Of a stretch of DNA of 64,000 bases, positions 2,622-63,858 are shown piece by piece. The stretch lies in contig OZ316896.1 in assembly GCA_973895155.1 (NCBI GenBank), positions 23,207,722 to 23,271,721 on the forward strand, written 5' to 3'. The position numbers and the translations under genes are program-made. Source of the DNA: Marsupella aquatica (lineage: Eukaryota; Plantae; Marchantiophyta). How positions within the stretch are numbered: position 1 is the stretch's first letter; each line of letters opens with the position of its first letter. Under the pieces are notes generated by a model. That model was not told the origin of the DNA, did no database searches, and saw only the letters and a list, made by a program, of their open reading frames with translations.

Positions 2622-8013
<5,392 letters not shown>

Positions 8014-15273: not shown

Positions 15274-19089
<3,816 letters not shown>

Positions 19090-31523: not shown

Positions 31524-31808
31524 ATTTCCCACCCTCCTTTCTCCTTCTCCCCTCAGCTCTGTCTCTTCAAATGTGATAACCACTACATCGTCCCCAGTCG
31601 TCAACTCAAGAGACCGACACTTAGTTTGCAATTTCTGTGGAGCAATTCCTCTGCTTCGGATCGAGGTCTGAGGACTGAAGCACTGATAACTAAATGTCTT
31701 CCGAAAGGAAGGAGATCAACTGTGGCTTTTGCTATACCATGGTCGTTAGGTCTCTCTGGTTTGGATCATTTGCCTCTCTACAGTTGTCGGTTCTCGGTAT
31801 AGTAATAA

Positions 31809-37564: not shown

Positions 37565-38269
37565 CTAAGCCCACCATGGATCCTCGCCTGTCCTGAAGTC
37601 GGTCTCTACCCAGGGGCTGAAGACGACCTTATCTTCGGCGACATCAACGTGCGCTAACGCCAGAGACAAAGGTGCCGGTCCTCGTACCACGCGCCCTTGG
37701 TTGTTATACTGCGAACCATGGCAAGGACAGATAAACTTGTTCTCCGGGCCATTGAATGGCACCACGCATCCGAGGTGAGTGCACACGGCATTGACTCCAA
37801 AAGTCGCCAGAGTACCGTCAGTCTCCACTACCAGATAGGTCGGATCTCCCCTCAAGCCCTGGGCGAGAGTTCTGTCACCTGGGGGGTGCGTCTTCAACCA
37901 ACCTGTCATGGTAACATCGTTTCCCAGAGCGTCCTTCGCACTCACGCCAGCTCCGCCTCCGCCAGAGCTAGGAGGGACGAGGAAGTACAGATATGGGCCC
38001 AGGAGCCCGGCACTGGGGAGGGAAAGGGCTCCCACGAGAAGCCAATTCATGAGGCTCCTCTTGCCCATGTCTGGGGCTTCGCCGGACGCCGCTGCAGCCA
38101 TGCAGACTGTCTTCACCCCTACGCTGTTCTTCTTCATGGGGACCATCCTCAGCGGTGCGAATTTCAGCTCAGCTGACGACGACGACGCCATAACGCCATT
38201 GCGAGATGCTCCCAATCGCGAAATCGAAGACGCAGCGGCCATAGCCTGCAGGCTACAAACTACCGCCAT
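37565..38269 (-). CDS. petC: Cytochrome b6f Rieske iron-sulfur subunit, plastid-targeted, intronless
   Basis: 234-aa ORF with Ser/Ala-rich transit peptide, PDMGKR..MNWLLVG TM helix, Rieske boxes CTHLGC and CPCHGS, and C-terminus [13 protein letters not shown]. Confidence 0.97.
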
Positions 38270-39824
38270 CGCTGCGACAACACTCGATGGTGTTTCCTTT
38301 CCGAATCTCTCTTACTGTGTGCTCTGACCACACTGTGCAGCAAATTCCCAGTTCAATTCACCACTTCTGCCTGCAATGTGCGCTAGTGGGAAAGCAAGAG
38401 AAGGAAGCCGAAGTGGAGTGGAGCGATGGCAGAGGAGCCCAATCGAGTGGAAGGGGAGAGCGGAGACAGATGATGGGTGTGGAGAGGAACGGGAGGGAGT
38501 GTGCGATCCACTCGACGCTTTTTGGCAATGGACAGCACGGGATAGCGGAGGCCTATCCACTCGTTTAAATGGTTCCGTCACCCAGAGTTCCAACTTCGGC
38601 AACTTTTTTACTCCCACTTTGAGAAGCGAAAGATAGTCCACTAATTAAAATCTGCGCGAAAAGTTGACACCCCCCATGAGTCTCGTTGAGGTTTACTTAC
38701 ACCTGTCAGGTCCCTCAGTTGAGCGCAGCCATTTCCTATTACTTCAAGGGGAGGCTAAGTGACCACTGTCTACCTTGCATGGGAGCTCCTTTGCAACTAC
38801 TGACTTTATCTCTACAGTCCGATCTTCCCGATGATATAAATTGCAGTTAAGATGTTGAATGGTCATGGATTTGTGTTTGCAAATGGTCCCGATCTTTCAC
38901 ATTTATATGATTTGCATTCTAGGTAAGATTTTGGCAAATTTGCCCCAAATAAAATGGTTGACTGGAGGTGTTCTCTAAGTGAAATACATGTCCCATGGAT
39001 ATTGAGTCTAAGGGTGACTTTTTGTTTTGTCTGAGGGCGACTTTACAAGACATCAAGCAGCCAGTGTTTAGATTGCCTGAAGCCATGGTGAAGCGGTCCA
39101 GCTTAGAGCAATCACCAATCCCCAAGTTCATGTCCCTCAATCAGGTTGGGAACCCTTTGCAGGAATGAGAGAACTCAAAGTTGTGCATTGCAAAATTTCT
39201 CTACAACAAAATGCATTACGCACTTTGGGAGATTCTCATGTTTTGGGGAATACCATTGATATGCAATCTAAACCTAATTAATCTGTGGACCCCCATGTTC
39301 ATCCAAGGAATGTGTGTGTGATTAAGTGAAATCAATTTTCATCAAGGCGGTAACCAACGGTTTTGAGTCTCCCGATGGTGTTGGTGTGTGCTCGTACAAA
39401 AACAAATGCTCAAAAGATAGAGATTTATTGTTTGTGAGTTACATTGAGTATTACTGGCACAAGACAGATTAGAGCACAACACTCAACTGTTGGCAAAAGA
39501 TCACTTGTCAATTCGGTGGGAAGAATACACAAAACGAACGAGCCATCACTTCAAACAAAGATTTGTAGTTATTTTTATTTAAGAAAGTTATGGTGTGAGG
39601 GGAAGACCAACAATTGTTTCTTTGACATAGAGGCTGCATTTGGTGTCAACCTGTGCTCAGAGTGAGCTTTAGTTAAGTTGAAGACTATCTAAGAGATGCG
39701 AACAATTCAAGTCGGGAAGCAAGCATTGTGGACAAGCGATGGTGACGTAATCAAGGAAATCAATTTGTAGCCGCTAAGTTTGTGACGGTGACGAGATTGT
39801 GATATCTCTTAATCAAAAAAGGGT

Positions 39825-43138: not shown

Positions 43139-45060
43139 TCACCAGTAATCGCCACAAGAGCATCTGCCACCTTTGAAATGATGAAAACGATTGGCATCCC
43201 TGGCTATAATCTCACGTCCAGTCACCTTCGAGATAAACTTGGTTGCGGTATGACACACCCGAAGGTTCTTCCATACACGAATTGGTTTTCCCCGAGGTAT
43301 GTGCAAAAGTCCGTAAGCAATAGCCAACTTCTCACTATGAGAACAAAGAGCTAGTTCTTTATCCTCCTCATTGATATCATGCAACACAAGTCGGGTATCC
43401 GGAATGTAGCCTTCAGCCTTCAGTGTTTCAGTCAATTTATTGAGCTCAGTATATATCGCCCTCGCTTCTGGGTGAGATTTATCCCCTACAGCAAATTTAT
43501 GGATCTTCTTATCAACTTCGATAAAGCTACGCCCTGGCTCCTTCCGAAGGCCTCTGTCTTGCATCATGGTGCGCACCAATGACTTCTTCTGTCGCTTACC
43601 AGCTGCAGCGTAGATATTAGACAGGAGCACGTATGCAGAGGCATTATTGGGGTCCAACTTGAAAAGCTCCTGAGCGGCAAGTTCGCCCAACTCCACATTA
43701 CTGTGAGTTCTACAAGCCCCAAGCAAGGCTGTCCAAGTGACTGTATTTGGTTCCATTGGCATGTCAGTCATGAAGAGCTCTGCTTCCTCGAAGTGTCCAG
43801 CCCTCCCAAGCAGATCCACCATGCAGTTATAATGCTCAATCTCAGGCTCGATGCCATAATCCTGCGTCATAGCTGAGAAGACTCTACGGCCATCATCAAC
43901 AAGGCCTCCGTGAACACAGGCTGACAAAACTGCCACGAATGAATACACGTTGCGGTTCACACCGTCTGCGGTCATTTTTCTGAAGAGGTTCAGGGCTTCA
44001 TTCCCACACCCATGTTGTGCAAGTCCACCGATCATTACAGTCCATGTGACTACATCGCGTTTCTCCATTCTGGCAAAAACAAGTCGGGCGTCATCTATAC
44101 TGCCACTCTCTGCATACATGTGAACGAGTGCACTGCCCACACGCAAAGCCGACTCCAGTCCGGCTTTTCTAGCGTGACCATGAACCTCCTTCACCCACTC
44201 CAAAGCCCCCGCACTTGCAGATGCATTCAGGATGCTCACATAAGTGATTGCATCTGGTTTGAAGCCTTCCCGTCTCATTTGGAGGAATAGTCGATATGCT
44301 TCCACACCATCACCCGTTCTGCACATGCTCCAAACATAACATTCCATGTAATGACATTTCGATTGGTCAACTTTTCAAAAGCATTGCTTGCCTCGGTAAT
44401 GCACCCACATTTAGCGTACATCATTACGAGAGCAGTCCCTACACGCACGTCCGATTCAAAGCCGACCCGTCGAAGATGCTCATGAATTTCTTTTCCGCAT
44501 CTTAGAGCTAATGGGCAGGCACATCCTTTCAGGATGCTCAGATACGTGATCTCATTCGGCTGCACGCCTTCTTGGCGCATTAGATTCAACATTTCGAGTG
44601 CAGATTCAACATGATCACTTCTAGCGTATCCTGCAATCATGCTGGTCCAAGTAATAACACTCTTCTTCTGAATTTGATCAAAAACTCTACGTGCATCCGA
44701 TAATCCTCCGCATTTGATATACACATTCAACAGCGTGATTACCACATATGGATTCTTATCAACTCCACTCTCGATGATGCAATCATGAATTTGCTTGACT
44801 ACTGACAGATCTTTCGGATGCAATAGCATTTGCAGAACTTTAACATATGTGTACGAGTCTGTAGGAATGCCTCGCTGTAGACGATCTATCAAAACAGCAA
44901 TTGTTTCATGCCTGCCAGTCCCTTTTGTCGTGACTTGAGACCGATCTCTCGTGCCATAACTAACATGAGATTGAAATCTGCAGTGAGTAATCACATTCGC
45001 CCTTGGCTTAACCCATGCAGGAGTTGACCATCCATCCACCCAAAGTACTTTCCTTGTCAT
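43139..45060 (-). pseudogene. PLS-class PPR-E-DYW protein gene, frameshifted and lacking the DYW CxxC motif (pseudogene, or an intact gene with an assembly error)
   Basis: ORFs 44275-45060 and 43139-44347 join into one PPR array if 1 nt is restored near 44313 (..FGACAE[R]GDGVEAYRLF). PG box KEPGRSFIEV, HSEKLAIAYG and terminal CSCGDYW are present. Reads KNLRVC-HTATK instead of KNLRVCxDCHTATK. Confidence 0.85.
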
Positions 45061-47441
45061 CTTATGATTGAACTCAAGTGCTCTGGGCTTCGTCTGTCAG
45101 CACCACAACCCACGATCAGATCTGGTACCAGGATCAAATCCACGACATTCCACGCAGTGCAATGAATTTGAAGTTATTTCTTGAGGACTATGTTTCCCAA
45201 CGATCTTTCTACAATGAATGTTCAGATATAGATAGCAGACCGGTAAGTCTAGGGAGTTCTAGGGTGCATTCCTACCTCTGTCCATATATGTATTTTCTTG
45301 TCTCCCTTGCTCCGCTGTGATATTTGGTAAAGATAACTTGCAAAAGTTGTGTGACTCCTTTTCAGCTGAGAGTAACGGCTATCTGTCAAGAATGCAATGA
45401 CCTTAGAATACTGAAATAATTGTGAAAGGCAGATCTAGGTAGCTCAAGTATCAATTAGCTTGTTCATACTCTTGTTATTCACTGTAACCACAGAAAGGAC
45501 AGAGTCAACAGAATATCGAAGTGGCATTAAAAACCTTCAGGCAGGAGTCGCATGTTATCGTTGAGGTTTGCATAGGATAGACTCTTATGACACATTGACA
45601 GGCGTTCAGTTCTACGTTTCCTCCACTGTCCTTTCTATTCTATACACAACCAGAATCTCAGGTTTTTGAAAAGCGACTACAATTCACAAAAAACCCTAGC
45701 CAGCATCTGTAGATTGGCTCTAGAGAATCCTTAATTAGGCGCACATGACATGAATGGGAAAGCGCTACCCGTCCTTCTCCTACAATTCAGAACTAAAGCA
45801 TATGCAGCATTCTTTAAATTGGCTCTTATACAATCCATCGAGAGACACATATGACATGAAAGTGACAGCGCCTCCCGCCCCCTCGCCCAAGAATCAAACT
45901 TCAAGTTCAATTAAAGTCTTCATCACACAAGCCCCATAGCAGGAAGTTCACGCAATTATAAATGTCACCGTGGTGCTGGAACAAGAGTTTCTGTTTAAAA
46001 GTAGGTACGCATAACGTTGAAATCGCTCTTCAGTCTCATTACCTGAAGGCCTTGTACAAGAACAATGGCTGATATCCATACCAATCAAACCGGAAGATGA
46101 AGGATGAACTCTGCAAATCAGACCACTGCCTATAGAAACTCATCAAGGCGAACGTCCTGGTACAGTTTTTAAAGTTCCATCTTGAGATGGGTAAGCTGCG
46201 AAAGGGAAAACAGTGAGCTAATATTGAAGTTGTCAAGCTTATTCTATGCTCCACATGTAAGCATACTTTAATATACTTCTCTGCACTTACAGTAGCAACG
46301 AGGTCCAAAGACATTCAGTAGTTTGGGATGATGAAGTAAATTCTCCGTTGATTATTGTCGAATAGAGTGATTTTTAAGTCTAAAATCCGCCACTTGGGAA
46401 CGGAAAGGACAGAGTACAAGATGCCAAATAATGACCCAATCAAGAATGAGGACACACGGGACCGAAGAAGGGCACAGGAGAGTTTAAAATATCAATCGGT
46501 TAAGCGTAGCTTTATTCTCTCTTTGGTATGGGTTTGAGCTATATCACACGCCGGCCCAATCGTCAACGAACAGGAGATTCTCCCTTTGCATCGGAAACTG
46601 AGTGGGAAGTTAGCAGAATAAGCTACAACTACTAGAGTTTCCCCCAAATAGGAACTACTGCATACCTACATCGTTTGCCAATTAGATACTTTTTTTCATT
46701 GTGAGATCCTTTTGAACTATCTTTGACATATCTGCCGCGCTCACTCTGCAAGTCGTGAGATCATGTACGAAATCTGACAATTTAAACCCAATAATGGTCT
46801 TCAAAGAGATTGATCTGAGAGGCATGGTTGCGTGTGCCTTCACTTCTTCCTTTCCAAAACCTGACAGCAATCTACTATGAAATAATCAGACCGAGCTGTC
46901 AAAACAAATACGGAACTACACTAAATGAAATTCTTCTGTACATTCTGCCCTTTAAAACGTAGTTCATATGACGCAAAAACGAAGCCCCCTCTCATTCAAG
47001 TGCCAAACTTTCAAACGATGGATAGTATTCGGCAACCAACGCAAATCTCAGGACGGTCCTTTGTCATTAACACCAGGGCCGGACTGATAAATTTTGAGAC
47101 TCACAAGTCCTGAAATTCAGATATGCCATAAAGAAAAACTTCGTCTATGAGTTGCCTTAAATCACCAGGTAAAGTCTTCGATATCTCTCTTTAGTTTACT
47201 CCCGGTCTTCCTTTCAGAAACCTGCGGAAGTCTACAATTGGGTTTTGTTATTGCATCTGTCTGTCAATGAAGATTTGGAGAAGAAAAAACATAGGGCAGT
47301 CTCCTCTTTGCCAAGGTGAGACAGTTGATGCCAATCAACAGCAATCGAGTTGACAGAACTCAACAAATATGGAAGAACACGAATTTCAGGGAAAGCAGAT
47401 CACCTTCCAATGAGTTACTGCTACGAGTATCAGAATCCTGT

Positions 47442-50400
47442 CTACAGCTTTGTGCCAAACACGCGACATCGTTCGCAACGTTTCTTGCAGATATCCTCAA
47501 GCATCTTCGCTGCTGCTGTACGTTCCTGCTGCATTTGTTTTGCCCGGGATCTCATCAATTGACGTTCTTCCTTACCGCCCATAGAAAAGTCATCGAGCCA
47601 TTCAGCTATAAGTTTCCCGAGTTGGTACATGTCCGATCCCTTGGTGTATCTTTTCCTTTTGTCATTGTCTTCTTCCAACGTTTCCGCATCCCAACCCGTT
47701 AAGTCCTCACCAACCCATACTTCATTGTCGTCTCCAGCAGCTTCCAAGTCTATGATCACCCATTTCCATTCACCCATATCATTTACTTTGATAACGTTGG
47801 GCCACCTTATGTCCCTGTGGGTGTAGCCTTTCATGTGCAAGTCCGCAAGGCCGCATAACATGTCATGCGTGGCATTTACTAAATCCTTGCAATCCTTAGG
47901 CTTTGCAGATGGGTCACCAACAGGTTGTAGTCGCAATACTGTTTTAGCCCTGGATGGTCGGGCGGATATAAGTTGGATCAGGTACCTGGAACCCTCGATT
48001 TTTGCATACAGGCATTTTATCGCGGTCACCTTATCTTTCATCAATCGTGGGATTTCCTTCGTCACGAAGTCAGGATAGATCGTCACTGCTCCACCATCAT
48101 CTCTTGCTATTGGCTTATATAATGACAAGAGGTTTTCACTACCCAGTTCTTTCTGTAGTTTCTGTAGGAGACAGTGCATCCGAATGGTGCTATGTAGGAA
48201 CTTGGCTACGTCGGTCAATACATTCAAGTCATAGAGTTGTGAGATACTTTCACAAACAATTTCCTTGCCTCGCGGATAGAGCTTCAGCCATTCAAACTGC
48301 CTTCCACCGCAGCCACCACCAATCACATAAGGGAGCTTACCATAGAACAAAGGGCTCCATGCCTTTAATTTTGAGGTGTTCTCAAGTACAGCCTCGTTCC
48401 GAAGTGCCGCGTCTATCGTATTCTCCCATCTGAGAATGAGACAACCCCTCACAAACAGCTGAAAATCTGGTCTTAATAGCGGTTTTAGTGGTCCCGATGC
48501 TACAGTACTAGTCGGGGGATTGGGTGAATCCAGTAACCAGACCAAACCTTTTAATTTTCCGTTTGCTGGAGCCTCCTCATTTAATAATGAGATGAACTCT
48601 CCAGTGAGATTAGCCAATTCATGTGAGCTGGTGGCCTCATTGCTTGGACAACGACGCATCATCTGTCCGAACACAGTATCGCAGAAGGATGCCAAGTTTT
48701 CCGCCGCTGCGGGAGTTTCAAGCTCCACCAGCTCAGAAGTGCGTATTTTCTGGAAAATTCCAAGATTTCTAGTTGGGAGCGGTACTGGTGTCTGGGACAA
48801 AAACTCCGAGAGTTCATGGGTACTTCGTGGGAGCGTCGGAGGTGGTTCCAACAGTTTCCCAAAATAGCGCTCTCCAGCATCAGCAGCAGCTCTTGCGAAG
48901 GACAGGACCTCTGGTGACGGTTTTGCCTTTTTTGCAAGTCGAGCTCCCTCTGCGTACACACCAATCACGAAGTGTTGAAGAGGAAGAGAAAACAGGAAAG
49001 TCATCCAATAATCACTCGAGCAAGGAGTCTACAAATTTGGCACGATTCCGGCATAAATGCTTTATCGGTTAGCAAAGCAGGAAGACACAGGACACCTGTA
49101 ATTGCAAAAGTGCTTTCCAAACAAATGCCAGAGCAAGGGCGACAGCTGCTGTCCATGATACCCTTGATCACTTTTCAGCAAAGAAAACAAAGCAGCAACA
49201 GAAGGGTGCTCAAAGGAAAAAACTCAACGAAAAGACACGGATTTCATTATCGATGTTTTCCTGTAGTTTCTGTAGGAGACAGTGCATCCGAACGGTGCTA
49301 TGTAGGAACTTGGCTACACCGGCCGGCAAATTCAAGTCAAATTCGTCTGAGATTAAATCATGAACAATTTCCTTGCCTTTCGGAGAGAGGTTCAACCATT
49401 GAAACCGCCTTCCAGCGCAGCCACCACCAATCACATAAGGGAGCTTACCATAGAACAGAGGGCTCCATGCCTTTAATTTGGACCTGTTCTCATCTACAGC
49501 CTCTGCCAGAAGTGTGTCGTTTATCTTATTCTCCCATCGGAGAATGAGACAATATTTCACAAACAGCTGAAAATCTGGTCTTAATAGCGGTTCCAGTGGT
49601 TGCGATGCTGCACTAGCAGTCGTGCGATTGGCTGAATCCTGTCTAAATTGCAAACTTAGTAATTGTTTGCTTTCTGGAGCTATGTCATTTAACAATCTGA
49701 GGAAGTATCCAGTGAGAATACACAATTCAGTTGAGCTGGTGGCCTCGTTGTCTGGAAGGGAATGTTTCATCAATTGGAACACAGTTTCGCAAAAAGTTGC
49801 CAATTGACTCGCCCCTTCGGAAGTATCAAGTACCACCAGATTAGGCTGGCCCAAGTTCTCGTTAGTTAGCTCATAGAGTACTGGGAGCTTTACTGGTGTC
49901 AGGGACAAAAACTCCTTCAGTTGATTGACACTTACGGGGAGCTCAGCAGGGGGTTCCAACAGTTTCCCAAAATAGCTACTTCTAGCAGAAATTCTTTCTT
50001 CCGAGGACAGAAATTTTGCTTTCTTTGAAGGTCGAGCTCCCTCTGCATACACATCGGTCTCTAAGTGTTGAAGAGGATGAGAAAAACAGGAAAGTCATCC
50101 AATAATCACTCGAGCAATGAGCCCTACAAATTTGGCACGATTCCGGCACAAATGCTTTATCGGTTCGGCAAAGCAGGAAGACACAGGACACCTGTTATTG
50201 CAACAGTACTTTCCAAACAAATGCCAGAGCAAGAGCGACAGCTGCTGTCGATGATGCCCTATATCTTGATCACTTTTCGGCAAAGAAAACAAATTAGGTG
50301 CAGCCAATTAGGCGAGTTCTGAGGAATAAACTCAACGAAAAAACAAACCAGAACCAGAAGACACTGAGACGAAATATATTGCTGTGAAATTCTGTTGGAA

Positions 50401-51552: not shown

Positions 51553-52154
51553 AGGGTAGGGAGTATGGTCACTCCCTCTGACATCCCCTGGGGCCCAAAT
51601 ACATCGTATGCCAAGGTGTACACAATATTTTAAATGTATGAATTTTGACTTGGGAGCCAATGAGAATGCCCTATACTGTTTTTATACAGGGGTAGGGGGT
51701 ACCCCTTAAGTTTAACAGGGAGTGTGAGGGAAAATCATACTCCTTGATATAGTACTTGTACACCCCTCAGTCCCTGGAAAAGCTACAATCTTATTGGCTT
51801 AAAAATTCTGACAGCATCCGTACCCCTTAGAGCTAGGTTCCATGGGGTTGGGAGTAAGGGGTACGGATGCTGTCAGAATTTTTAAGCCAATAAGATTGTA
51901 GCTTTTCCAGGGACTGAGGGGTGTACAAATACTGTATCAAGGAGTATGATTTTCCCTCACACTCCCTCTTAAACTTCAGGGGTACCCCCTGCCCCCTGTA
52001 TAAGAATAGTACAAGGCATTCTCATAATTGGCTCCTGAGTCAGAATTCATACATTTAAAATACTGTATACACCTTGGCATACGGTGTATTTGGGCCCTAG
52101 GGATGTCAGAGGGAGTGACCGTACTCCCTACCCCTGGCCCATGGAACCTGGCCC
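51550..52154. mobile_element. PIF/Harbinger-like MITE (51830-52154) abutting an inverted sister copy (51550-51829), forming a ~280-bp-arm hairpin
   Basis: TTA TSD at 51827-51829 and 52155-52157. TIRs GAGCTAGGTTCCATGGG / CCCATGGAACCTGGCCC (15/17). 51550-51829 is the reverse complement of ~51855-52135. Confidence 0.75.
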
Positions 52155-52600
52155 TTACCCTACACATATTCGCACTTCTAACTCCTGTGGAATACCACTT
52201 TTGCAGAAATACAATCAAGCTCTTATTGTACCAGGAAAGATGTGCAGAATTTCAAATTATTTTGGTGTTAGGCCCATCCAAGCCAGGCGAGGAGGGGGAT
52301 GTCGGCACTAACAAAGCCGATGCCGGGACTACCAATGCCGATGCCGGGACTACCAATGCCGATGCCGCAGTAACGGTCCCACCACGGCTGGCCGGGGCGG
52401 CAGCCAAAGCCAAAGACGAGGCCGAAGTCGGGGTTGGACCAGATAACGCCGAGGACAGGTTGACCCGATCAAGAGCACGTAATCTGTCAGAGGATGAACT
52501 TACGGCATTGGCCGCAGAAGGAGGATTAGGGGCGTCCATTGGGGATGAGCCACCACTGGCATGACGGTGGTGGAGGGCCGTCCCTTTTAGGGAGGGCAGA

Positions 52601-55600
52601 TGTGACACGGGTAACATGTCACTTGACCGAACCCAGGTCGTAGATTAGGACTTATACGATCATTAGGACCGTAGCCATAGCGTAGAATAGCACGTATAGC
52701 CGTCAAGTTGCCATTATGATTAGATTAGGAGTAGGTTAAGATAACCGAATAATTACGAGTTCAGGAAAGGGATTATTACGCACGACCGAGGTACGGTGGC
52801 GGCAGCGGAGTAAAAATCAGTTAGAAGAATCACGCTTGGACCGAGACGCCGACTTCAGCTCGTTATCAATGACCAAACGGCCTGACCTTCTCACGCTCGG
52901 GCTCGTCCGGGCACCCCCATAAGAGAGGAGCCGATGGCACTGCGGGCCATTCGCTCGCATTTACCTTTTTGGAATTCACGGACGCTGCCATCCGCTCGCC
53001 TTTTTGATTGAATCCAGTCGACCTTTACGAGGAAATTATCGAGGGAGAAGAGCGGAATGTGGCGAGATTTAGTCAGGACGAGCGAGGCCTCCACGAAAAA
53101 GGACCAGCCAGGTGGGAACGTGGACGCAACGAACCGGACTACGAGGTTAGTATGACCCTCACAGCCTTGGGATTTTGGACCTTGTTTGGCGAGGTAGGTG
53201 CTAAGTTCTCCGAGACTTACTGGTACTCTTGCCCCAAGAAAGCCGCTTACGAACGAAGGTACGCGAAGCTGGTAACCAAGGTAGCACTGGTTAATTGCGA
53301 AAGGACAGCCATCACCAGGGATTCTAGCTATAACGAGCTACGAGACTACATCACCGAACTATATCTCAGCGAGGAAGGGCTTAGATCGGTAGCAGAGGCG
53401 ATTCTTGAGGTTCCAGCTAAGTTCTTTAAGCTGAAGGGCAACCAGCGGCTTACTCAAGCGGAGTTCGACAAGATTCCGGGGTACCTAGACCAGCAGATCG
53501 CAGCCGAAAAGCGCCAAGAAGACATCAGCAGACAACGGGAAGCGGCGCGTAATCTCACGTTCCTCGGGGAAAGCTCCAACGCCTTCAACTGGGATATGGC
53601 TACCCCAGCGCCTCAACCGATGACCACCGGAGTACCGCCGAACCAGTCCCAAGTCCGTCCAGTAATCAACGCGGAGTGTTCTTCGGGTTCCGAGCGAGCT
53701 AGTCCGCAACTCAAACAACGTCCTCGTAAGCGGTCAAGGACTACGACGGCCCCCGAATCAACACGGACCGACGCCACGCCTGCACCTGCCCCGGCAAACC
53801 CCCCGACCAACCAGACCCGACGGCCTTTGGATAACCCGAAGTCCAACTTATTACAGGTAATCCGCGTCCCCGAGGTAGTCTGGATCGCGATCAAGAAACT
53901 CGAACATGCGGACTATCTCAAGGAGCATCAGTTGGAGCGGTTCGCCCACTTACTATGGAGGCCGTGCGCCGCCGGGCCGAAGGAGATTTGTGAGTTCATC
54001 TCCATTTCGACATTGATGCGTCAACCACCAAGGTTTCGGGGCAGACCTTATCACTCACGGAGCATCGGTTAACGCAAATTTTCGGCCTACCAACCGGGCC
54101 GGTGCCGGTGGAAATCCGAATTCGGGATAAGGAGTATACGCCGCGGCACTTCAAACCCGAGGGTAAGACGGACAACGAATACAAGCAGGGGGCGTGCACC
54201 AACTTAACCTGTATGGAGCGGCTTAACTTCATACGGACTACCCTACACATGATTGAGCCACGATCCGAGATTTCCCTCTGCACGATAGTGCAGGTGGAAC
54301 AGTACAAACGACGAAACTGGGCCCAATTCTTCTACCGAAGATTCTCGGGGGAGCTGAAGCGGGCTCAGGGAGGTATGGCTATTGGAGGGAAGACTTACTT
54401 GGGGAGTCATATCGCCATTATCCTCGCCTGGTACAAGGCACGGCGGGAGGCCAGAGGAAAGAATACGGCCACCTCAGCCCCGGGTAATGTCACCCCCGCC
54501 CCAGAGGAGGCAACCCCGACTACGCGGACTACTGTCCCTCGGACAAACCCTGAGCCGGAAGCCCCGACTAATACTCCGCAATCGCCCCCTGAGGAAATTC
54601 CACCGCCTCCTTCCGTTGAGCCTCCGCTACCTGCAGTACAACCACCCCCAATCCCTCCACCACCTGAAGAAACCTTCCCCTCCCCAGCGCTGACTACGGA
54701 GGAGCTCATTGCCCCTGCCGAGGAATCACCGGTACCCGAGAGGATGGAGGACTACCAAGTAGCCCCGGGGACCATGGCCTACGACCTGGTCCAGAAGTTT
54801 AGCCAGACTATGTCTGGGGAGTTGGCGACATACATCGGACAACAAGTCTCGGCGTACTTTCAGCCAGCCTTCTTCATGTTAGAGCACCAACCACGGATCG
54901 TCAGCCGCTTGGAAGAAGAACTCATGGCGAAGGGGAATGAGATCGGGCGTCTCCAGATGCTGGTAGAGCACCTCGAGGAGGAGGCAACGACCCGCCGTGA
55001 GGATTTAGTCCGCACTGTCGAACAGAGGGACGGACTAACCCAGGAGTTAAGCGGAGCGCAGGCCGAACTCAAGAAGCTGGACGACACCGTGCTTCAATTA
55101 CGCTCAGAATCTTCGGCTCGGGTTACCAGCCTGACCGACCTCAACAAACAATTCCTGCAGGCAGCACAGCAGGTGGCTAGTCTCTCCGCCGAACGAGATA
55201 AATTGCTAGCGCAGGACCAGGTCCATCGCGATGCCATCGACCAGCTCAACTTGGAGGTGGCACGGCTCCAGACTGAAGCCGACGAAGCTGCAAACGAGGC
55301 GGAGGAAGCATTACGGGACAACAAGGCTTTGCAGGACCGCGTCACCCTGCTCGTCCTCCAGCGGGGAAAACCTGGGCCCACCTCTGATCAAGGCGGCTCG
55401 AGGTCTCGCCCCGACAAGGGGACCAGCCCTGGTCCAACCACTGCACACACGTAAGGGGTAGTTAGCGAAGGGTAGAAGCAGGCGCCACGCGAGGCGGTTA
55501 AGTCAGCGGCATCTTTTAGTTAGGCGTAACGGCAGAATGACTATCATTAGGCGCCGATTAGCGGCAGTAGGAAGAATTAGGGCCGGTCAGTTAGGATCAG

Positions 55601-56437
55601 CCAACGTAGGATTGAGTCCATCAACGGACTAGAGTTTGTCAGTAGGCTTGGCCGCTGCCATTCCGGTTGGCACACTCGTAGTCGACGGTCAACCGGTCAG
55701 TGCAGCGCGACCGGTAGTCAGCAGTTAGTTAGTCAGTAGGTAGTACCCCGGAAGGTAGTATCCTCCGGTTCTCTTCCGCTACGGTAGTATTTAGGCTTCC
55801 CCTTCCGCGATGGGAAGGGGGAGAAGGCTTAGTTATCTCAGCAGAAGAAAGGCGAGGCACGGGGAGTCCCGGCCTGAGTAGGGTCAGAGCGTACCAAGGA
55901 GTGAGAGCCAGAGTCGAGCTTGCTGGGCAAGTGCGAGGCAGGGCCTCGTAGAGATTGGGCATCGACTGCCGTTGGGCCTGCTGACCCCCTTTGAAGTTGA
56001 GTCAACCATGTAAACTGATGCTTCGCTGAGTAAATGTAGTCTTTTCCCCTTAATGTTTCTGAGAGTAACTGGTGTTGTGTGTATGCTTTGTCCGGGCAAA
56101 GGCGCCATTTTAAGGGACGTACCGGGTGCGGACTAATGGTAGGGATTGCCACTCATTGCATGTCACAAGGTCTTGTCACGTCGATGGCTTGAAAAGCCCC
56201 AAGTCGGGAGTTAGACCGCGTCACTAACTGAGGGAAAATTCCAGCGGTGGAAAATAAATATACCTATGACAAGTATGAATTATGCGAGTGTTATACCAGT
56301 AAGTATAGCGGCTTAGCCCGACTTAGGGCTATTGAAAGTCACTACACACCTCCTTGCCCGAACCCTCACCCCTACTGGTGGTCGAGGTCGCACCACGACA
56401 CTAACCCGGATTTAAGGCCCAGGGTAGGGGTGCGACA
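52601..56437 (+). mobile_element. 3,837-bp ORF-bearing solo LTR
   Basis: Termini TGTGACAC...GTGCGACA with exact 5-bp TSD GCAGA (52596-52600 and 56438-56442). Empty site seen in the paralogous LTR (GCGGA, 62957-62961). No internal direct repeats and no gag/pol seen. Confidence 0.8.
53008..55454 (+). pseudogene. LTR-encoded accessory protein (~815 aa) broken by one frameshift
   Basis: The 354-aa and 450-aa ORFs join across a 1-nt loss near 54005, giving EFISxFDIDASTTKVSGQTLSLTEHRLTQIFGLPTG. This aligns with EFVGSWEPETNCTRIYGKDFYLTPKVIAEVFGLPMG of the 1220-aa ORF. A Pro-rich linker and coiled coil follow. Confidence 0.75.
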
Positions 56438-58643
56438 GCAGACGTGGGGGAGGGAGGCGTGAGTGGGCAAGGCAAGGGCGAACCTCTAGAATTAAGATTA
56501 GGATCAGGACCAAGAGGCGGCCCTGACACTTAGATTAGTGGGATTGCGGATCCGTTGGTAAGAGCAACACTTGTGCTCTTGCCCCGTTGTACATAGGCAG
56601 ATTACAATTAGAATATGTTGCAATGAATTGGTAGGTGAGTTGCCAGGATAAATACCTATGCAACGGGGAGTTCAGGCCTTTTTTCTTAAACAAGTTTTTA
56701 GTGCACCAGCAAGACTTAGTAAAAGAAGCTCTCGGTTAGTTATACAGTGAATTTTGTGTATATTCATGTTTCCTCATACCCATGAGCTGAATAGAGTTGG
56801 CCTTCCGGCTTAGTTCGCAGATCTTGTGTATGAGAAGTATTGTTTGTATGAGAGTTTCACCAAGTATAACTTAGTCAGTAAAAGTCATTTTTCTATTTGT
56901 GTGTCGCATCAACTTGTATGAAGATTGCCCACACCAACTACAGGAGAGAAGGGGAGTAAGAAAAGTCATAAGAAGCAGTGAGAGTTGGATGTGTCGAGCT
57001 GAGAGAGGTCTTAGCGGGTACCCAAGCCAATTGGGCATCATTCTGGGGGCGGAATCCAAACATACCTGAAGGAAGACCGAAAGGAGAGGATAAGGAGAGG
57101 CATAGAGTAAGTTGGCAACATACCTCATGACCCGATGAAGGATCTGTCCAGTATATGTGGGTAAGGAATTAGCAGCGTCTCATGCCGATGAGCCACAAAA
57201 CCGAACTTGGCAAGACCAAAACCGGTAGGAATTGGCTTGTTCTGGGAGGTTCTTGGGTCCAAAGGGCCATGGGACGCACCACAAGAGTCCTGGCCCTAGT
57301 CCGTGCCAACAACACAGATTCAAATCCCTTGGCCAGGCTGGCTAGGGGGCGATGGCGTATTACCTTTTCATGCAAATCCATATAATAAAGCATGACCAGA
57401 AGCTAGGATAAAGACCTTTGCTTGAGAGTGAAGCCTCTAGACCGGGGCACAACTACAGTTGGGGTGAAATAGGAAACAATGGGCATCACAACACTCATCT
57501 ATTTATGAGCAAACCTTGGGCATTCATACTACCCAAAAATGTTTTTTACAAGTATCTCAGCGTGGGCATACCGCGTACAATATGTTGCCACGGGTTTTTC
57601 TGTGTTTTTCCCCCCTGTTGCTTGTTTTTTTCAGCCACCCGTACAATATCCGTACTGAAATCCTCATTTCAATGCACGACGCTCATAAAGCAAAGTTTTT
57701 CATACGCGAGCCCTCTGCAAAAAACAAATCGCACTGACGTGTGTAGTGAAAAAACAATGTTACTTCGTAATCGAAGACAAGGAAAAAACACCGTTTCAAA
57801 GGCACCAGAGAATTTCTAAAGGCACCAGAGAATTTCTACTCCACAGATATTGTAAAATTTTATCTCAAATGAATTTATAGGATTTAATTCCAAGCACACA
57901 CGAGAAATGTTTTTCTTCGCTCTGCACATATATTTGTCGTAGCATGGGTTTTTTTGTGTCTATTGGGTGTGTGTGTTTTTCGGTGTGGGCTGCTTGTTTT
58001 TCATTACAAATATGTCGGTGTGTGAAATTTCCTCCCAATATGTTTAGTGTGTGTAATTTTTTCCCCCAAAATAATGTTGTTGCGTTTAGTTTTAAACCCC
58101 CCATGTTTCTGTGTTTGTTTTTACATGCGGTGTTGGTAATTTTTTTTCTTTAATGCATTCTGTGCTGCCCGTTTTTTTACGTGGTTTGTTTTTAGTGTTT
58201 TTTATGGGTTTATTTTCCCATGTGCTCCTTGTGTACCATATTTTGTGTAGGGGACCGTGTTTTTTTCCCTCTCATTGCTAGTTTATTTTGTATTTATGGT
58301 GGATGCGTTGTTTTATATTTTTTTGGAAATTGTCCAAAAAATTTCCAAACATATCCGTACATTCAACAATTCAATGCACAGTCCAATGCGAATGCCTTAC
58401 ATGGACAGGCGGCCAGTTGAAGTGGCCGGTGTAACGTCATGGGTGGTTTACATTCATGCTATAAGGTCCTTTGCCAAAAGTGTATACATTTATAGCCGGT
58501 GTAAACTGTCGTAAGGCTATATAATTAGATATGTCGGTAGATATGTAAGTATATACGCAAGTAGATAAAGACATTACTTTTGGTTATTATTCCTTACTTG
58601 GTCAATGGATTACCCCATCTCCTTCGACGTTTCATTATTGCAT

Positions 58644-59090
58644 TACCCTGTCTCTTGCGTGCTTTCATTTCTGGAAAGCCCCCTGTTCCTTGCTGGGGTT
58701 CATTATGGGGGTTACCCTGTGTCCGTGTCTCCTCTCCAGTTTCATCACTTGATTACCCTATGTCTTTCTTCGAGGTTTTTTATTTATTTATTATTCTATG
58801 TCTTGCCCCGATATGAATTTTGTTCTGGAATACCCTGTGTCTTGCTGGGTTTGTTTTATGGAATACCCCTGTCCCTTGCTGGTGTTCATTATGGGGCTAC
58901 CCGGTGTGTGTGTCTCCTCTCCAGTTTCATCACTAGATTACCCTATGTCTTTCTTTGAGGTTTTTTATTATTATTCTATGTCTTGCCCCGGTATGAATTT
59001 TGTCCTGGAATACCCTATGTCTTGTTGGGTTTGTTTTATGGAATACCCCCTATCCCTTGCGGGGTTTCATTATTAGGTTACCCTGTCTCC
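58644..59090. repeat. ~180-187-bp tandem repeat, about 2.4 copies, built from shorter GGAATACCC/TTACCC subunits
   Basis: Units start near 58644, 58831 and 59011 (TACCCT(G/A)T..TCTTG...). Confidence 0.8.
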
Positions 59091-59186
59091 TTGGAGAGGA
59101 GCAATTTCATCAGTTATCAGTGACTGATATCAGTCACCGACATTTTTTTGGACAATCTCGGAGACCTCTCTAATCAATCTGGGAGG

Positions 59187-62100
59187 TGTGATGCCTAGAC
59201 AGGAATCACTCGGCCGGTTAAGTGGGTAAAGCAGGAAGGCACCCTAGGAACACCTTAGTATAGTGACAAAACAAGGAAAATATAAACAATTAGGGGCAAC
59301 CATGGAACCCGGGCAGAGGCCGGAGGTAAGGCTGAGGGTGAAAACCCGATTAGGGTTAGGGCGCGTTAAGCGTCGGCGGCTAGGAAGGATCAACGGGAAG
59401 AAGGACCGGCAGAGGAGAGGGGTAAGGAGCGCTTGCAGGAGATGGTGGCTCATTTGCGAGCACGAACTAGGCAGACGACTACGGGAGGCCAACTACTGTC
59501 AGTTGCTTAGGCAAGCACTCGGGGAGAGAGTAGATACCGACGATCAACCTAAGGAGGGTATGAGCAACGTCAATCAAGCGGCACATTTCTGGGGATGCCT
59601 GTTCGAACGGGCAACTGAGTACATCAAGACTTACGAGGACGAGGAGTCAGAAAGGGCAGCTCGAGAACGGCAGGAGCTCGCTCGATTGTGGGAGCTGCAG
59701 AAGACGGCTTTCTTAGGAGGCGAACTCATCAAGGACGAGTTCCTGTGGACGCCTACTTCCAATCAACTCGACGATCTTCTATTTTGCAAAGACAGCGTCG
59801 TCGGCATCCGAGAGGCCATCAAGAACTGCAACGACATACACTGGGAATTAAAGGGTAGCACGGAAAGGTGGACCCAGGCAACGGTGCTAGGAGAAACCTC
59901 CACGGCAGCAGAGATGAAGAGGAAGGGAGCCGTCAACGATGAAGCCACCCCGGCAAAAAGAACGAGGTCGGCGGCACCAAAGAAGCCAGCCGAGCAGCAG
60001 AGTAGGAGGCAGGGAGAAGCCAAAGAGGAGGAGGTTGATCCCATCAAGGCCATTCCAACCAGGGATGACACCTGGAAGGGCTGGGCGGCAACCCTACCGG
60101 TGGAGGTGCAACTACATTTTGCACGGGAGGAGGATGCATGCTTTACGGCCATGCAGACCAAGAAGTACCAAGGCTTCATGGCCGGATCCGGCTTGGAGGC
60201 CTTTGTAAGATTACCATGGCTGAAGCCGGAGGTACCGGAGTCGGACCTATTAGAATTCGTGGGGTCATGGGAACCCGAGACCAATTGCACGAGGATATAT
60301 GGGAAGGATTTCTATCTTACTCCCAAGGTGATTGCCGAAGTGTTTGGCTTGCCGATGGGCAATAAGACCAAAGTTGATACCAGGAAGACCTTGCCTGACA
60401 AGGAGTTCCGGTCGTTCCCCGGGCCATCAACGAAGAATGGCTTCTTCCGGAACACCTGCACCAACCCGCACATAGGAGAGATGATCGACTTCTTGCGGGT
60501 GACCATGCATTGTAACTTGCCGAGGGCAGAGATCGGCAAGGCACAGGTCTATCTGGCAGAAAGGCCAGACCCAAGCCGGGACTACAACGGGTACCTCCTC
60601 AACCAATTGAAGAAGATCTTAAAGGAGGAGCAGCAGGTAATCGGCATGGGGAGCGTGTCGCGGCTTGGCTATCACATGCCGCTGTTGTGCCGGTATGCCA
60701 GAGGTCAGACTTTTGCCCCGGTACTTCCCCTGCAGGTAAGGGCACCCGAGGAAGCTCCAACGCCGAGGCCGTTGGCTGAGAAGCCTCAACCACCTGTTAG
60801 TCCTACGATCGAGCAGGTGTTTAGGCCCAGGAAGGAAGACTTGCCGATGCAGCAACCAGGCATGCAGAGTCTGCTGAAACTACTGGAGAAAGAAAAGAAA
60901 TCGGCATCGGCAACAACAACGGCAACGGCAACAATGCAGGACACTACTACAGAGGTAGGCCTACACCGGCTCACAAGAGAAAACCCCTTTGCTGGAGACA
61001 AGGAGAGAATCAGGCCGGAATCCAAGCCAGGTGTTCGAATGTACGTGGGAACCTCAAGCTCCGAATCTGAGGCAGAATTGCCTGAAGCTCCTACCGAGGA
61101 AGAGGAGAGGGAGAAGCCGGAAATCCAAGAGGTAGAGGAGGCAGTGGAGGACTGCAGCCATGATAATTCCGGCTATGGGTCGGACCATCACGTTCCAGGA
61201 GTAAGGACCTGTGGCCGGTTTGTCCCCACACTTCCAAGGGTAGTGCGAGGGGACCCCAACCAGCAGAGTAGCCCTGAGTCTCCCCCACCAGATGTTGCTC
61301 CCCCGAGCTTCGACGGCATAAAACAGACGGTGCAGGAATTTCAGGAGCGAATCAAGCAGGAGGAAGAGGCCACCCTGGCTAAGGAAAAGGATTTACCAGG
61401 AGGAGATTGGCCGGAGGACATCAGGCGGCTAGCCGAAAAAGGAAGCAAACCTCTAGCCACGATTGAAGAGATCCGCAGGACGGCTTGGGAGCAGAGGCCA
61501 CGATGGGCGATGCCGATCACTTCTACTTACTCCACCTACGCTAAGAATAGAGCCATGGAGTATGGTGAGATGTGTGGGGAACTTGCGCTCGACATCTTTG
61601 GAGAGGAGTTGGAGGTAGGACCCTTTTTCCATAGGGAGCAGTTGGAGAAGCACCAATTAGAAGAAGCGGTGGCTTTAGAGAGAAGCAAGAAGGACGAGGT
61701 CATTCGGCGGCTTAGGAGGATGGGAGCCGAGATTGAAGATCTAAGGGCGGCCAAGAAAGCCCAAGATGAACTGCGGATTAAACGACATGAGCTGAACATC
61801 ATGCAGGGGCAGTTGGACGCCGCGCAGGCTGATACTCAGAATATCAAGGATAAACTGACTCAGACGCAGGAAGAGTTGGCCGACACGATCAAAGAAAGGG
61901 AAAAGTGGAAGCAAGAGCTGAAGAATACAGAGGAGGCCCACATAACAGCCAACAGCCGGGCCATGGCGGAGACCCAAAGAAAGGAATGGGCGTTGAAAGG
62001 GGAGCTCGAGAAAATCCGCGGAGCCCTTGAGCAGAAGGAGGTCGAGTTAGGGAAATCCTATCAAGGGATTATGGCGCTGCAGCAGGAGCTTGCGTCCCTG

Positions 62101-63836
62101 ACGGCCAGCTTCAAGGCCGACCTAAGGGAGAAGGACGAGATGCTCGAACAGACTTACGCCAAGATGAACCAGATGGAGTCTGTCATCATTGCAGAGCTCG
62201 ACAAGGAGCTAAGAGCAACCCAGGAGGAGAAGGCTACCTTGAAGAAGGAATTGGAGGAAGCCCACAGGGAGCAGGAGGAGGCCAAAAACGAGCTGGAGGG
62301 GGCACGTAAGGACCTGGATGAAACCCAAGAGGAGTTGGAGGAAATCACGAGGAAGATGGAGAACCTACAGCGGCGGGCCGACAACCAAACAGAGCGGCTG
62401 AAGAAACAAGCCGCAGTATTTAAATGCTTAGCTGCAGCAGGTCCATCTCCTGTTGGGACAAACCAGTTACCAGGGGTGGTAATTGCCGAAGGACAAGCCG
62501 CGCCACCTGCACCAGTGCCGGAGGTAAGTGGGAAGGGGAAGGGACCAGCTGCCGAGCCACCAACGAAGAAGAAGCGGAAACCTTTAGGGTCAAGGAGTAA
62601 TACGACTTCACAGGCCGTGGTGATCAAGGAGGTAGACCCAACACCGACCCCAGACAGGGTCACGGCTAGGGATCCAACTACCCTAGGGGAAGGGGAAGCC
62701 GAAGCCGTGAGAGTGGCTGAAGCCGAAGCCGTGAGAGTGGCTGAGGCCAAAGCCGTGGGTATTGCCGAGGCCGGTGTCGAGGCTGAAGCCGAAGGTGGAC
62801 CCAGTCAGGTCGAGGGAGAGTTGACTCGGTCAAGGGCAGGTAATCTGTCAGTAGGCGGGCCAACGGCAGTGGCTGAGGAGGAAGTGTTGGGGGCGTCCAT
62901 TGAGGATCCACCACCGGTGTCGTGACGGTGCAAGGGCGCCGTTCCTTTTAGGGAGGGCGGACGTGGAGGGAGGAGGCGTGAGTGGGCAGGGCGGGCACGG
63001 ATCTCCACGTTTAGGATTAGGATCAGAACCAGGAGCGGCCCTGACACTTAGCTTAGTGGGATTGCGGTCCCACTGGTAGGAGCAACACTTGTGCTCCTGC
63101 CTTGCTGTACATAGGTAGATTCGGGCAAGTAGATTACTGTTAAGTAGATTAGGCTTACGATGCAAAGAATGGCGGATCCACTACCAGGATAAGTACCTGG
63201 GCAGCGGGGAGCTCAGGGCCTCTTCTTTAGCAAGTTTTTAGTTTGCACCAGCCGGGCTGGGATCAAGTAGTACGAGAAGCTCTCGGTTAGTCATACAGTG
63301 ACCCTTGTGTATATTCATGTTTCCTCATGCCTAAGAGCTGAATAGAGTTGGCCTCACGGCTTAGTTCGCAGAACTTGTGTATGAGATGTACTGTTTGTAT
63401 GGCAAGTGCATGGTATGACTCAGTCAGAATGAGTCATTTTGCTATTTGTGTGTCGCATTAACTTGTGTGAAGAGTGCCCACATCAACAGAAGGAAGGAAA
63501 GTAAGCAGGGGAGTGAGAGTTGGATGTGTCGAGCTGAGAGAGGTCTTAGCGGCTTAACCAAGCCTATTGGGGATCATTCCGGCGGCGGAATCCAAACATA
63601 CCTAACAAGACGGAGGGGAAGACAGGGGAAGGCCTATATTAGGCCGGCTACGTATCTCATGACCCGATGAAGGATCTGTCCAGTATATGTGTGTAAAATG
63701 TTAATAGTAGTAGTAGAAGGTTAGCAGCGTCCCATGCCGCTAAGCCGCGGAAACGGCCTCGCCAAGCGTGAAACCCGCGGGAATCGGCTTGAGCTGGGGG
63801 GTTTCTTGGGTTTAGGGAGCCATGGGACGCACCACA
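59187..63836 (+). mobile_element. 4,650-bp 5' LTR of a Gypsy (probably Tat/Athila-group) retrotransposon containing a long ORF
   Basis: Termini TGTGATGC...GCACCACA (7/8 inverted match). The 3' end is fixed by loss of homology with 57283 and by the PBS 4 nt downstream. The 5' end resembles 52601 (TGTGA..TCACT(C/T)G(G/A)CCG). Confidence 0.72.
59263..62925 (+). CDS. LTR-encoded accessory protein, up to 1220 aa: globular plant-transposon-type domain, acidic/Pro-rich linker, long coiled coil, basic NLS-like motifs
   Basis: Uninterrupted ORF (first ATG 59302; the real start may be further downstream). No gag, PR, RT, RH or IN motifs. The central domain is homologous to 53008-55454. Contains KRKG..PAKRTR and PTKKKRK. 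Confidence 0.75.
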   Translation: MTKQGKYKQLGATMEPGQRPEVRLRVKTRLGLGRVKRRRLGRINGKKDRQRRGVRSACRRWWLICEHELGRRLREANYCQLLRQALGERVDTDDQPKEGMSNVNQAAHFWGCLFERATEYIKTYEDEESERAARERQELARLWELQKTAFLGGELIKDEFLWTPTSNQLDDLLFCKDSVVGIREAIKNCNDIHWELKGSTERWTQATVLGETSTAAEMKRKGAVNDEATPAKRTRSAAPKKPAEQQSRRQGEAKEEEVDPIKAIPTRDDTWKGWAATLPVEVQLHFAREEDACFTAMQTKKYQGFMAGSGLEAFVRLPWLKPEVPESDLLEFVGSWEPETNCTRIYGKDFYLTPKVIAEVFGLPMGNKTKVDTRKTLPDKEFRSFPGPSTKNGFFRNTCTNPHIGEMIDFLRVTMHCNLPRAEIGKAQVYLAERPDPSRDYNGYLLNQLKKILKEEQQVIGMGSVSRLGYHMPLLCRYARGQTFAPVLPLQVRAPEEAPTPRPLAEKPQPPVSPTIEQVFRPRKEDLPMQQPGMQSLLKLLEKEKKSASATTTATATMQDTTTEVGLHRLTRENPFAGDKERIRPESKPGVRMYVGTSSSESEAELPEAPTEEEEREKPEIQEVEEAVEDCSHDNSGYGSDHHVPGVRTCGRFVPTLPRVVRGDPNQQSSPESPPPDVAPPSFDGIKQTVQEFQERIKQEEEATLAKEKDLPGGDWPEDIRRLAEKGSKPLATIEEIRRTAWEQRPRWAMPITSTYSTYAKNRAMEYGEMCGELALDIFGEELEVGPFFHREQLEKHQLEEAVALERSKKDEVIRRLRRMGAEIEDLRAAKKAQDELRIKRHELNIMQGQLDAAQADTQNIKDKLTQTQEELADTIKEREKWKQELKNTEEAHITANSRAMAETQRKEWALKGELEKIRGALEQKEVELGKSYQGIMALQQELASLTASFKADLREKDEMLEQTYAKMNQMESVIIAELDKELRATQEEKATLKKELEEAHREQEEAKNELEGARKDLDETQEELEEITRKMENLQRRADNQTERLKKQAAVFKCLAAAGPSPVGTNQLPGVVIAEGQAAPPAPVPEVSGKGKGPAAEPPTKKKRKPLGSRSNTTSQAVVIKEVDPTPTPDRVTARDPTTLGEGEAEAVRVAEAEAVRVAEAKAVGIAEAGVEAEAEGGPSQVEGELTRSRAGNLSVGGPTAVAEEEVLGASIEDPPPVS

Positions 63837-63840
63837 TTTT

Positions 63841-63858
63841 TGGCGCTAGATGGAGGGG
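63841..63858 (+). promoter_or_regulatory. Primer-binding site, tRNA-Asn-like
   Basis: TGGCGCTAGATGGAGGGG is complementary, with one mismatch, to the recalled plant tRNA-Asn(GTT) 3' end CCCTCCTTCTAGCG-CCA. It lies 4 nt after the LTR-terminal CA. Confidence 0.75.

Follow-up and report, generated by a model that had tools for sequence, protein, structure and literature searches.

Plant long terminal repeats (LTRs) are treated as non-coding, and the formation of a solo LTR is viewed as the host's disarming of an element. A 64,000-nucleotide stretch of the liverwort Marsupella aquatica (hereafter the window; GCA_973895155.1, contig OZ316896.1, forward-strand positions 23,207,722 to 23,271,721) raises the question of what an insertion that consists largely of one gene is, and what that gene might be for. 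The insertion is a 3,837 bp mobile unit with TG...CA ends at 52601..56437; all coordinates are positions within the window, on the + strand unless stated. A second TG...CA unit, assigned to a first family, lies at 59187..63836 (+). The reading put forward here is a tentative one: the insertion would be a solo LTR of a second Ty3/gypsy family which carries a whole accessory gene, and the product of the gene would be a VANC-type factor that counters the silencing of its own family.

The unit was inserted as one piece into the repeat of an older relative. Its termini are TGTGACAC at the 5' end and GTGCGACA at the 3' end; they form imperfect inverted termini, complementary at 6 of 8 bases. The target-site duplication GCAGA is seen by inspection at 52596..52600 (+) on the left and 56438..56442 (+) on the right; it is exactly 5 bp long, and the sixth base is mismatched. 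A 5 bp match at a given end has a chance of 1/1024, and the ends of the unit are fixed separately by an empty site. This is a single GCGGA at 62957-62961 in the neighbouring unit, between flanks homologous to those of the insertion: the left flank (52403/52417-52600) is ~71-72% alike and the right flank (56438-57283) 75% alike. Public contigs without the unit are also present; those of runs X2 and X3 join 52593-52604 to 56441-56454. The original prediction, made from the letters of the window, had described a TG...CA element with an exact GCAGA duplication, an empty site in a paralogous LTR and no internal LTR pair. The first was borne out by inspection and self-BLAST, the second by the single GCGGA and the X2 and X3 joints, and the third by the self-BLAST, in which there is no internal repeat pair and the best non-self matches are 11-20 bp long (E >= 0.5).

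The host of the insertion can be traced on both sides. Its left part (52403..52600, +), recognised from reading frames and flank alignment, holds the last part of a gene that is a decayed paralogue of the one in the neighbour (stop codon 52562-52564), with a tail of 36 bp, which places the insertion point 36 bp downstream of the stop codon of the decayed open reading frame (ORF). Its right part (56438..57283, +), recognised by alignment to the neighbour's tail, is identical to it at 690 of 818 aligned bases and ends in ...GCACCACA, like the neighbour; no primer-site-like sequence follows at 57283. The possibility that a purine run before a TG at 52300 is the purine tract of a short LTR in the host was weighed and dropped, since the run can be read as codons of the decayed host ORF. 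A 580 bp fold-back with arms ~90% complementary (51554-52133) adjoins the host remnant upstream, and the 5' part of the host is missing beyond it.

Seven public runs hold part of this region, all as contigs, and none of them is listed as RNA. Over 52300-56800, two of four runs span the entire unit; the summed depths reach tens of thousands, which are not copy numbers, and the identity of matching contigs ranges from 99% down to below 90%. The analysis of sharp boundaries covers the 3' end. Loose ends are found exactly behind 56437 in all four runs (6, 7, 3 and 3 contigs). Agreement of the sequence beyond this position is low (0.49-0.60 across the four runs), a pattern which many different flanks would give. 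The divergence of contigs from four runs exactly at 56437 shows that 52601..56437 is mobile and multi-copy. Depths of 725 (X1) and 2353 (X2) belong to contigs that end precisely at 56437, and the contig across the right junction of the insertion has depths of 16.6 and 92.2 in the same runs; the ratio suggests tens of near-identical 3' ends. In X2, X5 and X7 there are contigs whose match to the unit is confined to its final 36 bp and which differ from it before 56402 (56372-56402); they suggest another subfamily that ends in the same way.

Three things suggest that the unit is an LTR: its ends, the duplication, and its relationship to the neighbouring unit. The neighbour, 4,650 bp long with an intact ORF of 1,121 codons (59560-62925), is most likely a 5' LTR, because a primer-site-like sequence lies directly past its 3' end: this end reads ...GCACCACA and is followed by 4 bp and then by a TGG... 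sequence resembling a primer-binding site (63841..63858, +). The TGG... sequence may be complementary to plant tRNA-Asn; there is no tRNA gene in the window, and the papers searched gave no match for it. The window ends at 64000, before any gag or pol domain could be recognised. A 180 bp tandem repeat (58605-59093) lies just upstream of the neighbour.

The two units share a layout, with the gene in the same orientation, leaders of 551 and 373 bp (unit and neighbour) and tails of 983 and 911 bp. A 42 bp block of the unit (56232..56273, +), which includes AATAAA at 56253, resembles 63570-63609 near the neighbour's 3' end; its significance is marginal, with an alignment score of 41 against a best of 40 in 300 shuffles. 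The tail of the unit and the host tail align best at a place other than this block, and not significantly (30 of 300 shuffles). The 5' leaders show no likeness, and 242 of 300 shuffles score as high. In PMC6317226, plant non-chromoviruses are given 4-5 bp duplications and LTRs of up to ~5 kb.

The solo LTR of the original prediction stands as far as it describes a discrete, multi-copy TG...CA unit with a 5 bp duplication and a homologous gene; its status as an LTR is inferred, not seen directly. Two observations count against that status. In the 3.8 kb family neither a primer site nor a purine tract nor a pair of LTRs was seen, and the flank consensus at 56437 does not start with TGG. The latter is a weak test on mixed flanks, because a contig departing at the branch point has only ~30 bases in common and may be missed. 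Neither the window nor any locus retrieved has an internal region of this family. Scans of sequence collections with the DNA of the 3' end returned 18 + 4 loci that match only the 17-20-base pattern and are due to chance, and scans of viral and metagenome collections for related loci gave no usable locus.

These gaps would also be expected if the unit were not the LTR of a gag-pol family at all. It could be a non-autonomous unit, or the remnant of an extra ORF plus LTR, with integrase-type ends and moved whole by the enzymes of another element. That no paired copies or primer site were seen for this family speaks for this explanation, as does the confinement of the DNA likeness between the units to one marginal block. 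However, a retro-mobilised non-autonomous element needs terminal direct repeats, a primer site and a purine tract, and the unit has none of them. Short direct terminal repeats with an internal primer site or purine tract were looked for and none were found: the self-comparison has no direct repeat longer than 17 bp, and neither a primer site, searched for with two motifs only, nor gag-pol was found within the unit. Terminal direct repeats around a primer site and purine tract are a trait of terminal-repeat retrotransposons in miniature (TRIM) and large retrotransposon derivatives (LARD). A remnant would lack integrase-type termini with an exact duplication at its 5' side, whereas both ends of the unit have them, and the homologous neighbouring unit has a primer-site-like sequence past its end. 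This explanation is judged unlikely, and the unit is probably a solo LTR, as its ends, the absence of internal repeats, the multiple copies and the sharp 3' boundary indicate.

The gene takes up about 60% of the unit. It is spread over two open frames, A (53008-54072) and B (53994-55454), which on alignment with homologues make up one gene of ~767 codons. The leader before the probable start codon (52601..53151, +; 551 bp) has many stops in all frames up to ~53005. The start is probably the ATG at 53152, because homologues begin a few residues before a conserved FW motif; it was placed by alignment with three homologues and the neighbour's protein. An upstream ATG at 52934, near which other copies have a small indel (52957), was dropped as a start since homologues begin just before FW. 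Homologue alignments assign 53152..54003 (+) to frame A, with an N-terminal 'FW' domain (~53152-53510), a Pro/Thr-rich linker and the first third of the core (~53842-54003). Frame B accounts for 54006..55454 (+), as delimited by homologue alignments, Pfam and a structural model; it contains the rest of the core to ~54452, a Pro-rich spacer (~54474-54743), a coiled-coil-like region (~54891-55358) and the stop codon (55452-55454). The non-coding tail (55455..56437, +; 983 bp) would comprise R, U5 and what remains of U3, and has the sole AATAAA of the unit, at 56253; the predicted ~1 kb of non-coding sequence with AATAAA near this position was correct.

The two frames are joined by a frameshift in the core domain (54000..54006, +), located from the frames, homologue alignments and run contigs. 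The homologue P0074 (906 aa) is collinear with both: its matches run in order from the N-terminal domain across the end of frame A into the beginning of frame B, and then to the coil. It matches frame A with E values of 5e-15 and 0.003, frame B with 40% identity over 146 aa (E 3e-34) and the coil with E 1e-8; alignments of P0029 and P0051 span the break. Other copies have a small indel at this place: X2 shows a loose end at 54004 (5 contigs), and one gap is present in each of X5 record 19 and X6 record 28, which span it. A programmed shift is therefore unlikely, and the break is probably due to damage in this copy or to a slip of the assembly. Broken in its core, this copy likely gives no working protein. 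A coding region of ~815 aa with one frameshift had been predicted; the single break near 54004 holds, and 815 is the length from stop to stop.

The composition of the two frames is that of a gene, with GC contents by codon position of 0.58/0.46/0.63 and 0.63/0.47/0.65. Between copies, 24 differences fall in the two frames and 13 of these are synonymous, including all 12 at third positions; they belong to 27 differences scored up to position 55343, out of 40 printed from 688, a subset chosen by the tool. This synonymous bias lends weak support to selection. The protein has no hydrophobic segment (best 19-residue mean 1.2).

The genes of the unit and the neighbour are homologous and colinear, with an N-terminal domain, core, Pro-rich spacer and coiled coil in each. 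Identity in the core is 31% over 192 aa (E 5e-16); the coiled coils match with E 4e-4, and the N-terminal part (frame A) is 25% identical over 115 aa (E 0.001). A central domain and coiled-coil layout in common with the neighbour's ORF at low identity, as originally noticed, is what these alignments show. The further statement that this family independently supports the architecture of an ORF in an LTR was too strong; since the genes of the two families are homologous, the families descend from a single arrangement and do not represent separate origins.

Relatives are found in other genomes. Word-index protein searches returned nothing for frame B or the neighbour's core, and a profile of both cores found 58 relatives (E <= 0.001) among 1.84 billion representatives. 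Thirty representatives were looked up: 11 have an organism name, in every case the leafy liverwort Calypogeia fissa, and 19 are unnamed or 'hypothetical'. The C. fissa relatives (CAM6082530.1, CAM6086213.1 and CAM6090539.1 among them) are deposited as 'unnamed protein product' and are spread over several branches of a 41-row tree; by themselves they would make a liverwort the likely host of the unit. In this tree of cores the unit falls in a group that is not firmly supported (85/76), together with P0074 and four more sequences, and the neighbour pairs with P0001. A grouping of the unit, the neighbour and P0001 is not rejected (p-AU 0.30, on the 29 rows left after removal of 12 near-duplicates or close paralogues). 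The deep alignment of relatives is too diverse to yield search patterns. The arrangement had been called old and lineage-wide; for the protein this holds as judged from the alignments, given ~30% identity between families and C. fissa relatives on several branches. Many unnamed homologues (P0001-P0003, P0012, P0021, P0054 and P0074 among them) sit on Logan contigs of 3.6-4.8 kb, near the size of the unit. This size may reflect LTR-length contigs, transcripts or only assembly limits.

What the protein does can be approached through its predicted fold. AlphaFold models were made for the neighbour's core (222 aa, pLDDT 91) and the part of the unit's core in frame B (149 aa, pLDDT 94). Among 48,161 chains, the best match of both is VANC21 (9LNK), in the same register. 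For the neighbour's core, Z is 8.6 with 203 residues aligned and an rmsd (root-mean-square deviation) of 4.3, and the next match has Z 2.3; for the unit's fragment, Z is 5.1 with 143 of 149 residues aligned and an rmsd of 4.1, and the next has 3.8. Most alignment rows are common to both models, which are therefore not independent. Both cores are predicted to have a VANC21/PMD-like fold, with a match of moderate strength; their sequence identity to VANC21 is 8-11%.

Several points weigh against reading much into this match. A Z of 5.1 is within the range of unrelated folds, and a Z of 8.6 is only just above it. Foldseek gave no match at E <= 0.001 for either core model; VANC21 ranks third for the neighbour (E 2.0, TMq 0.48) and is not among the matches listed for the unit. 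The unit's protein matches no Pfam family besides weak coiled-coil matches. The VANC fold is also reported to be common with MAIN, a PMD protein (PMC13547354), and MAIN silences transposons (PMC5418596), so the fold leaves the direction of the effect undefined. Other searches gave little: one of 59 aligned members matches Transposase_32 (E 0.006), PF10536 matches neither window protein nor any of the 59, and a sequence search of solved structures gave one unrelated match (E 0.84). Atlas leads point to DUF1985 and PMD clusters, the PMD lead for the neighbour being weak (score 0.87).

Two other explanations take up the fold. VANC21 is a protein of VANDAL elements, and the unit could be a derivative of a VANDAL/Mutator-like DNA transposon that retains only its VANC-like gene. 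The identity of the best fold match is what recommends this. Mutator-like elements make ~9 bp duplications, and the unit has a 5 bp duplication with TG...CA ends; it has no long terminal inverted repeats, and no transposase frame was found among its open frames or Pfam matches. VANC is moreover described as dicot-specific in PMC13547354. Such a derivation is highly improbable. The second explanation keeps the anatomy of a solo LTR with a gene and gives the protein another job. It would be an accessory factor of the PMD/Athila type that, for example, tethers the integration complex or the element to chromatin, or damps the expression of its own family. The occurrence of the VANC fold in silencing MAIN/PMD proteins is compatible with this, and so are the Atlas leads; a PMD with a coiled coil is the layout of the extra ORFs of Tat/Ogre elements, whose function is given as unknown in PMC4408406.

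A further piece of evidence is a short word in the unit. CGGACTA occurs nine times between 53135 and 56135, at 53135+, 53700-, 53909+, 54234+, 54525+, 55006-, 55031+, 55625+ and 56129+. The copies are dispersed over both strands and all three frame offsets, and two lie in the non-coding tail. The neighbouring unit has none and the other 60 kb have three. The number expected in the unit is 0.5 under Markov models of order 1 and of order 2, 1.3 under order 3, and 1.35 when shuffling keeps the protein. At least one 7-mer reaches nine copies in 1 of 300 sequences for Markov order 1, 1 of 300 for order 2 and 16 of 300 for order 3, and in 2 of 300 codon shuffles. CGGACTA is also more extreme than the best 7-mer in each of 13 equal tiles of the window (p 2.7e-7 compared with at best 1.2e-5). 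From these word counts, shuffles and control tiles it is a candidate protein-binding site, to which the unit's own protein might bind, and a lead of modest strength.

Here too there are points on the other side. The word was chosen post hoc; among 400 shuffles that keep the protein, 8 have at least one 7-mer as extreme and 52 at least one 6-mer. Coding DNA contains seven of the nine copies, and no copy belongs to a tandem array, while the targets of VANC proteins are described as forming repeats in tandem within non-coding DNA (PMC5735166, PMC10398659). The neighbour has no comparable word that could be counted: AAGCCG and TGCCGA are each reached in 0 of 2000 synonymous shuffles, with the best of any word at 2 of 400 (6-mers) and 64 of 400 (7-mers), and both were set aside as its own words, being within the range of control tiles. 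With an accessory factor of another kind, CGGACTA would be a chance enrichment or the site of a host factor; its modest family-wise support and its layout, unlike VANC arrays, agree with that, and its prominence against all 13 control tiles and its absence from the neighbouring unit do not. The unit also lacks CpG depletion, with an observed/expected ratio of 0.95 compared with 0.68 in the neighbouring unit and 0.51 in the host tail. This fits protection, but also youth. An accessory factor with another job is possible, and is given less weight than an anti-silencing factor.

The anti-silencing reading can be set out as a sequence of steps. The unit would have arrived as a full element whose two LTRs recombined, leaving one between the duplicated bases. 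With the gene in U3, reverse transcription would copy it to both ends, and every solo LTR would keep it. This anatomy, a solo LTR by recombination with the gene in U3, is held with good confidence. The gene may be expressed from the 3' LTR, by way of a transcript that is spliced or starts internally, or the leader may contain a promoter; a solo copy which expresses the gene would have to have its promoter there. The VANC21/PMD-like core is predicted to bind DNA and the coiled coil to oligomerise the protein, which might then bind the dispersed CGGACTA in copies of its own family and lower their methylation. Given the anatomy, binding to CGGACTA with loss of methylation, or a close form of it, is at best evenly balanced against the alternatives.

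The arrangement resembles several known systems and differs from each. Extra ORFs of plant Ty3/gypsy elements are described as internal, located either ahead of gag or in the stretch from pol to the 3' LTR (PMC6317226, PMC7264820, PMC4408406). Those of the OTA non-chromoviruses (the PMD-coiled-coil ORFs of Tat/Ogre, Athila ORF1 PF03078 and Transposase_32 PF20167) also have a globular core and a C-terminal coiled coil, and the elements likewise have a 5 bp duplication and LTRs of up to ~5 kb; one homologue of the unit's protein weakly matches Transposase_32. These ORFs are internal, whereas the unit's gene is wholly between its TG and CA ends, and its protein has no match at Pfam level and comes from a liverwort, not a seed plant. 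In PMC4408406, no extra ORF is given for Tat-like elements of mosses and the first is placed in gymnosperms.

VANC proteins of VANDAL elements (VANC21, PDB 9LNK/9LNJ) are alike in being the best structural match of both cores, in having a coiled coil and in having an enriched word specific to the family. VANC21 and VANC6 each bind their own short word, which is enriched in their own family (PMC5735166), and the coiled coil of VANC21 is predicted to self-associate (PMC13547354). The cores have no sequence match to VANC; VANDAL is a Mutator-like DNA transposon and the unit a retroelement, and VANC words lie in non-coding tandem arrays, whereas CGGACTA is dispersed and mostly coding, with a function that is only predicted. 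The host genes MAIN/MAIL1 have a fold reported as common with VANC, probably belong to the same superfamily and connect to the neighbour through the weak PMD lead. They silence transposons, however, while the unit's gene is on a mobile element and has no PF10536 match, and PMD proteins MAIN/MAIL1 are described as angiosperm-only in PMC8616336. A protein-coding frame inside an LTR is known from mouse mammary tumour virus (MMTV), a betaretrovirus with the sag ORF (PMC2191060, PMC2191119); sag is an unrelated membrane protein of an animal retrovirus, and the unit's protein is predicted to be soluble, has ~770 residues and belongs to a plant retrotransposon. No plant precedent for a gene inside an LTR was found in the literature searched, which left most subscription papers outside its coverage.

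Other features of the window lie apart from these units. There is a 540 bp inverted-repeat element at 31800-32339, and a large direct duplication (~2600-8000 and 11500-20200; 88-97% identity, spacing ~9-12 kb) without long ORFs. On the minus strand, 37565-38311 encodes a complete cytochrome b6f Rieske subunit (petC) with a transit peptide in one uninterrupted frame. petC usually has introns in land plants, and this one may be a retrocopy or a case of intron loss. A pentatricopeptide repeat (PPR) gene of the RNA-editing factor type, with E, E+ and DYW domains over two frames, is found at 43139-45096 (-). Two tandem paralogous ORFs are present at 47442-50094 (-); the longer matches Pkinase_fungal PF17667 (E 2e-6) and the second seems truncated. 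They recall Crinkler-type fungal kinases, from which a gene transfer is presumed possible.

The locus at 52601..56437 contributes a clean insertion for which an empty site exists, a second family whose protein is ~30% identical, and a candidate recognition word particular to that family. The broadest reading, that liverwort Ty3/gypsy families moved an anti-silencing gene of the VANC fold wholly into the LTR, each with its own word throughout the LTR, coding sequence included, and that each solo LTR is a trans-protecting cassette, in a system that predates VANDAL/VANC and puts the PMD/VANC fold on mobile elements beyond seed plants, is doubtful as it stands. If accessory genes are present in the LTRs of at least two families which are ~30% alike, solo LTRs would keep a gene, and annotation pipelines would miss such elements or label their ORFs as host genes. 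The PMD/VANC fold, described from angiosperms and, in extra ORFs of retrotransposons, from gymnosperms, would extend to a liverwort. The function of extra ORFs of the PMD/Athila type is a long-standing question; it becomes testable with two families whose cores have diverged and of which only one has the candidate word.

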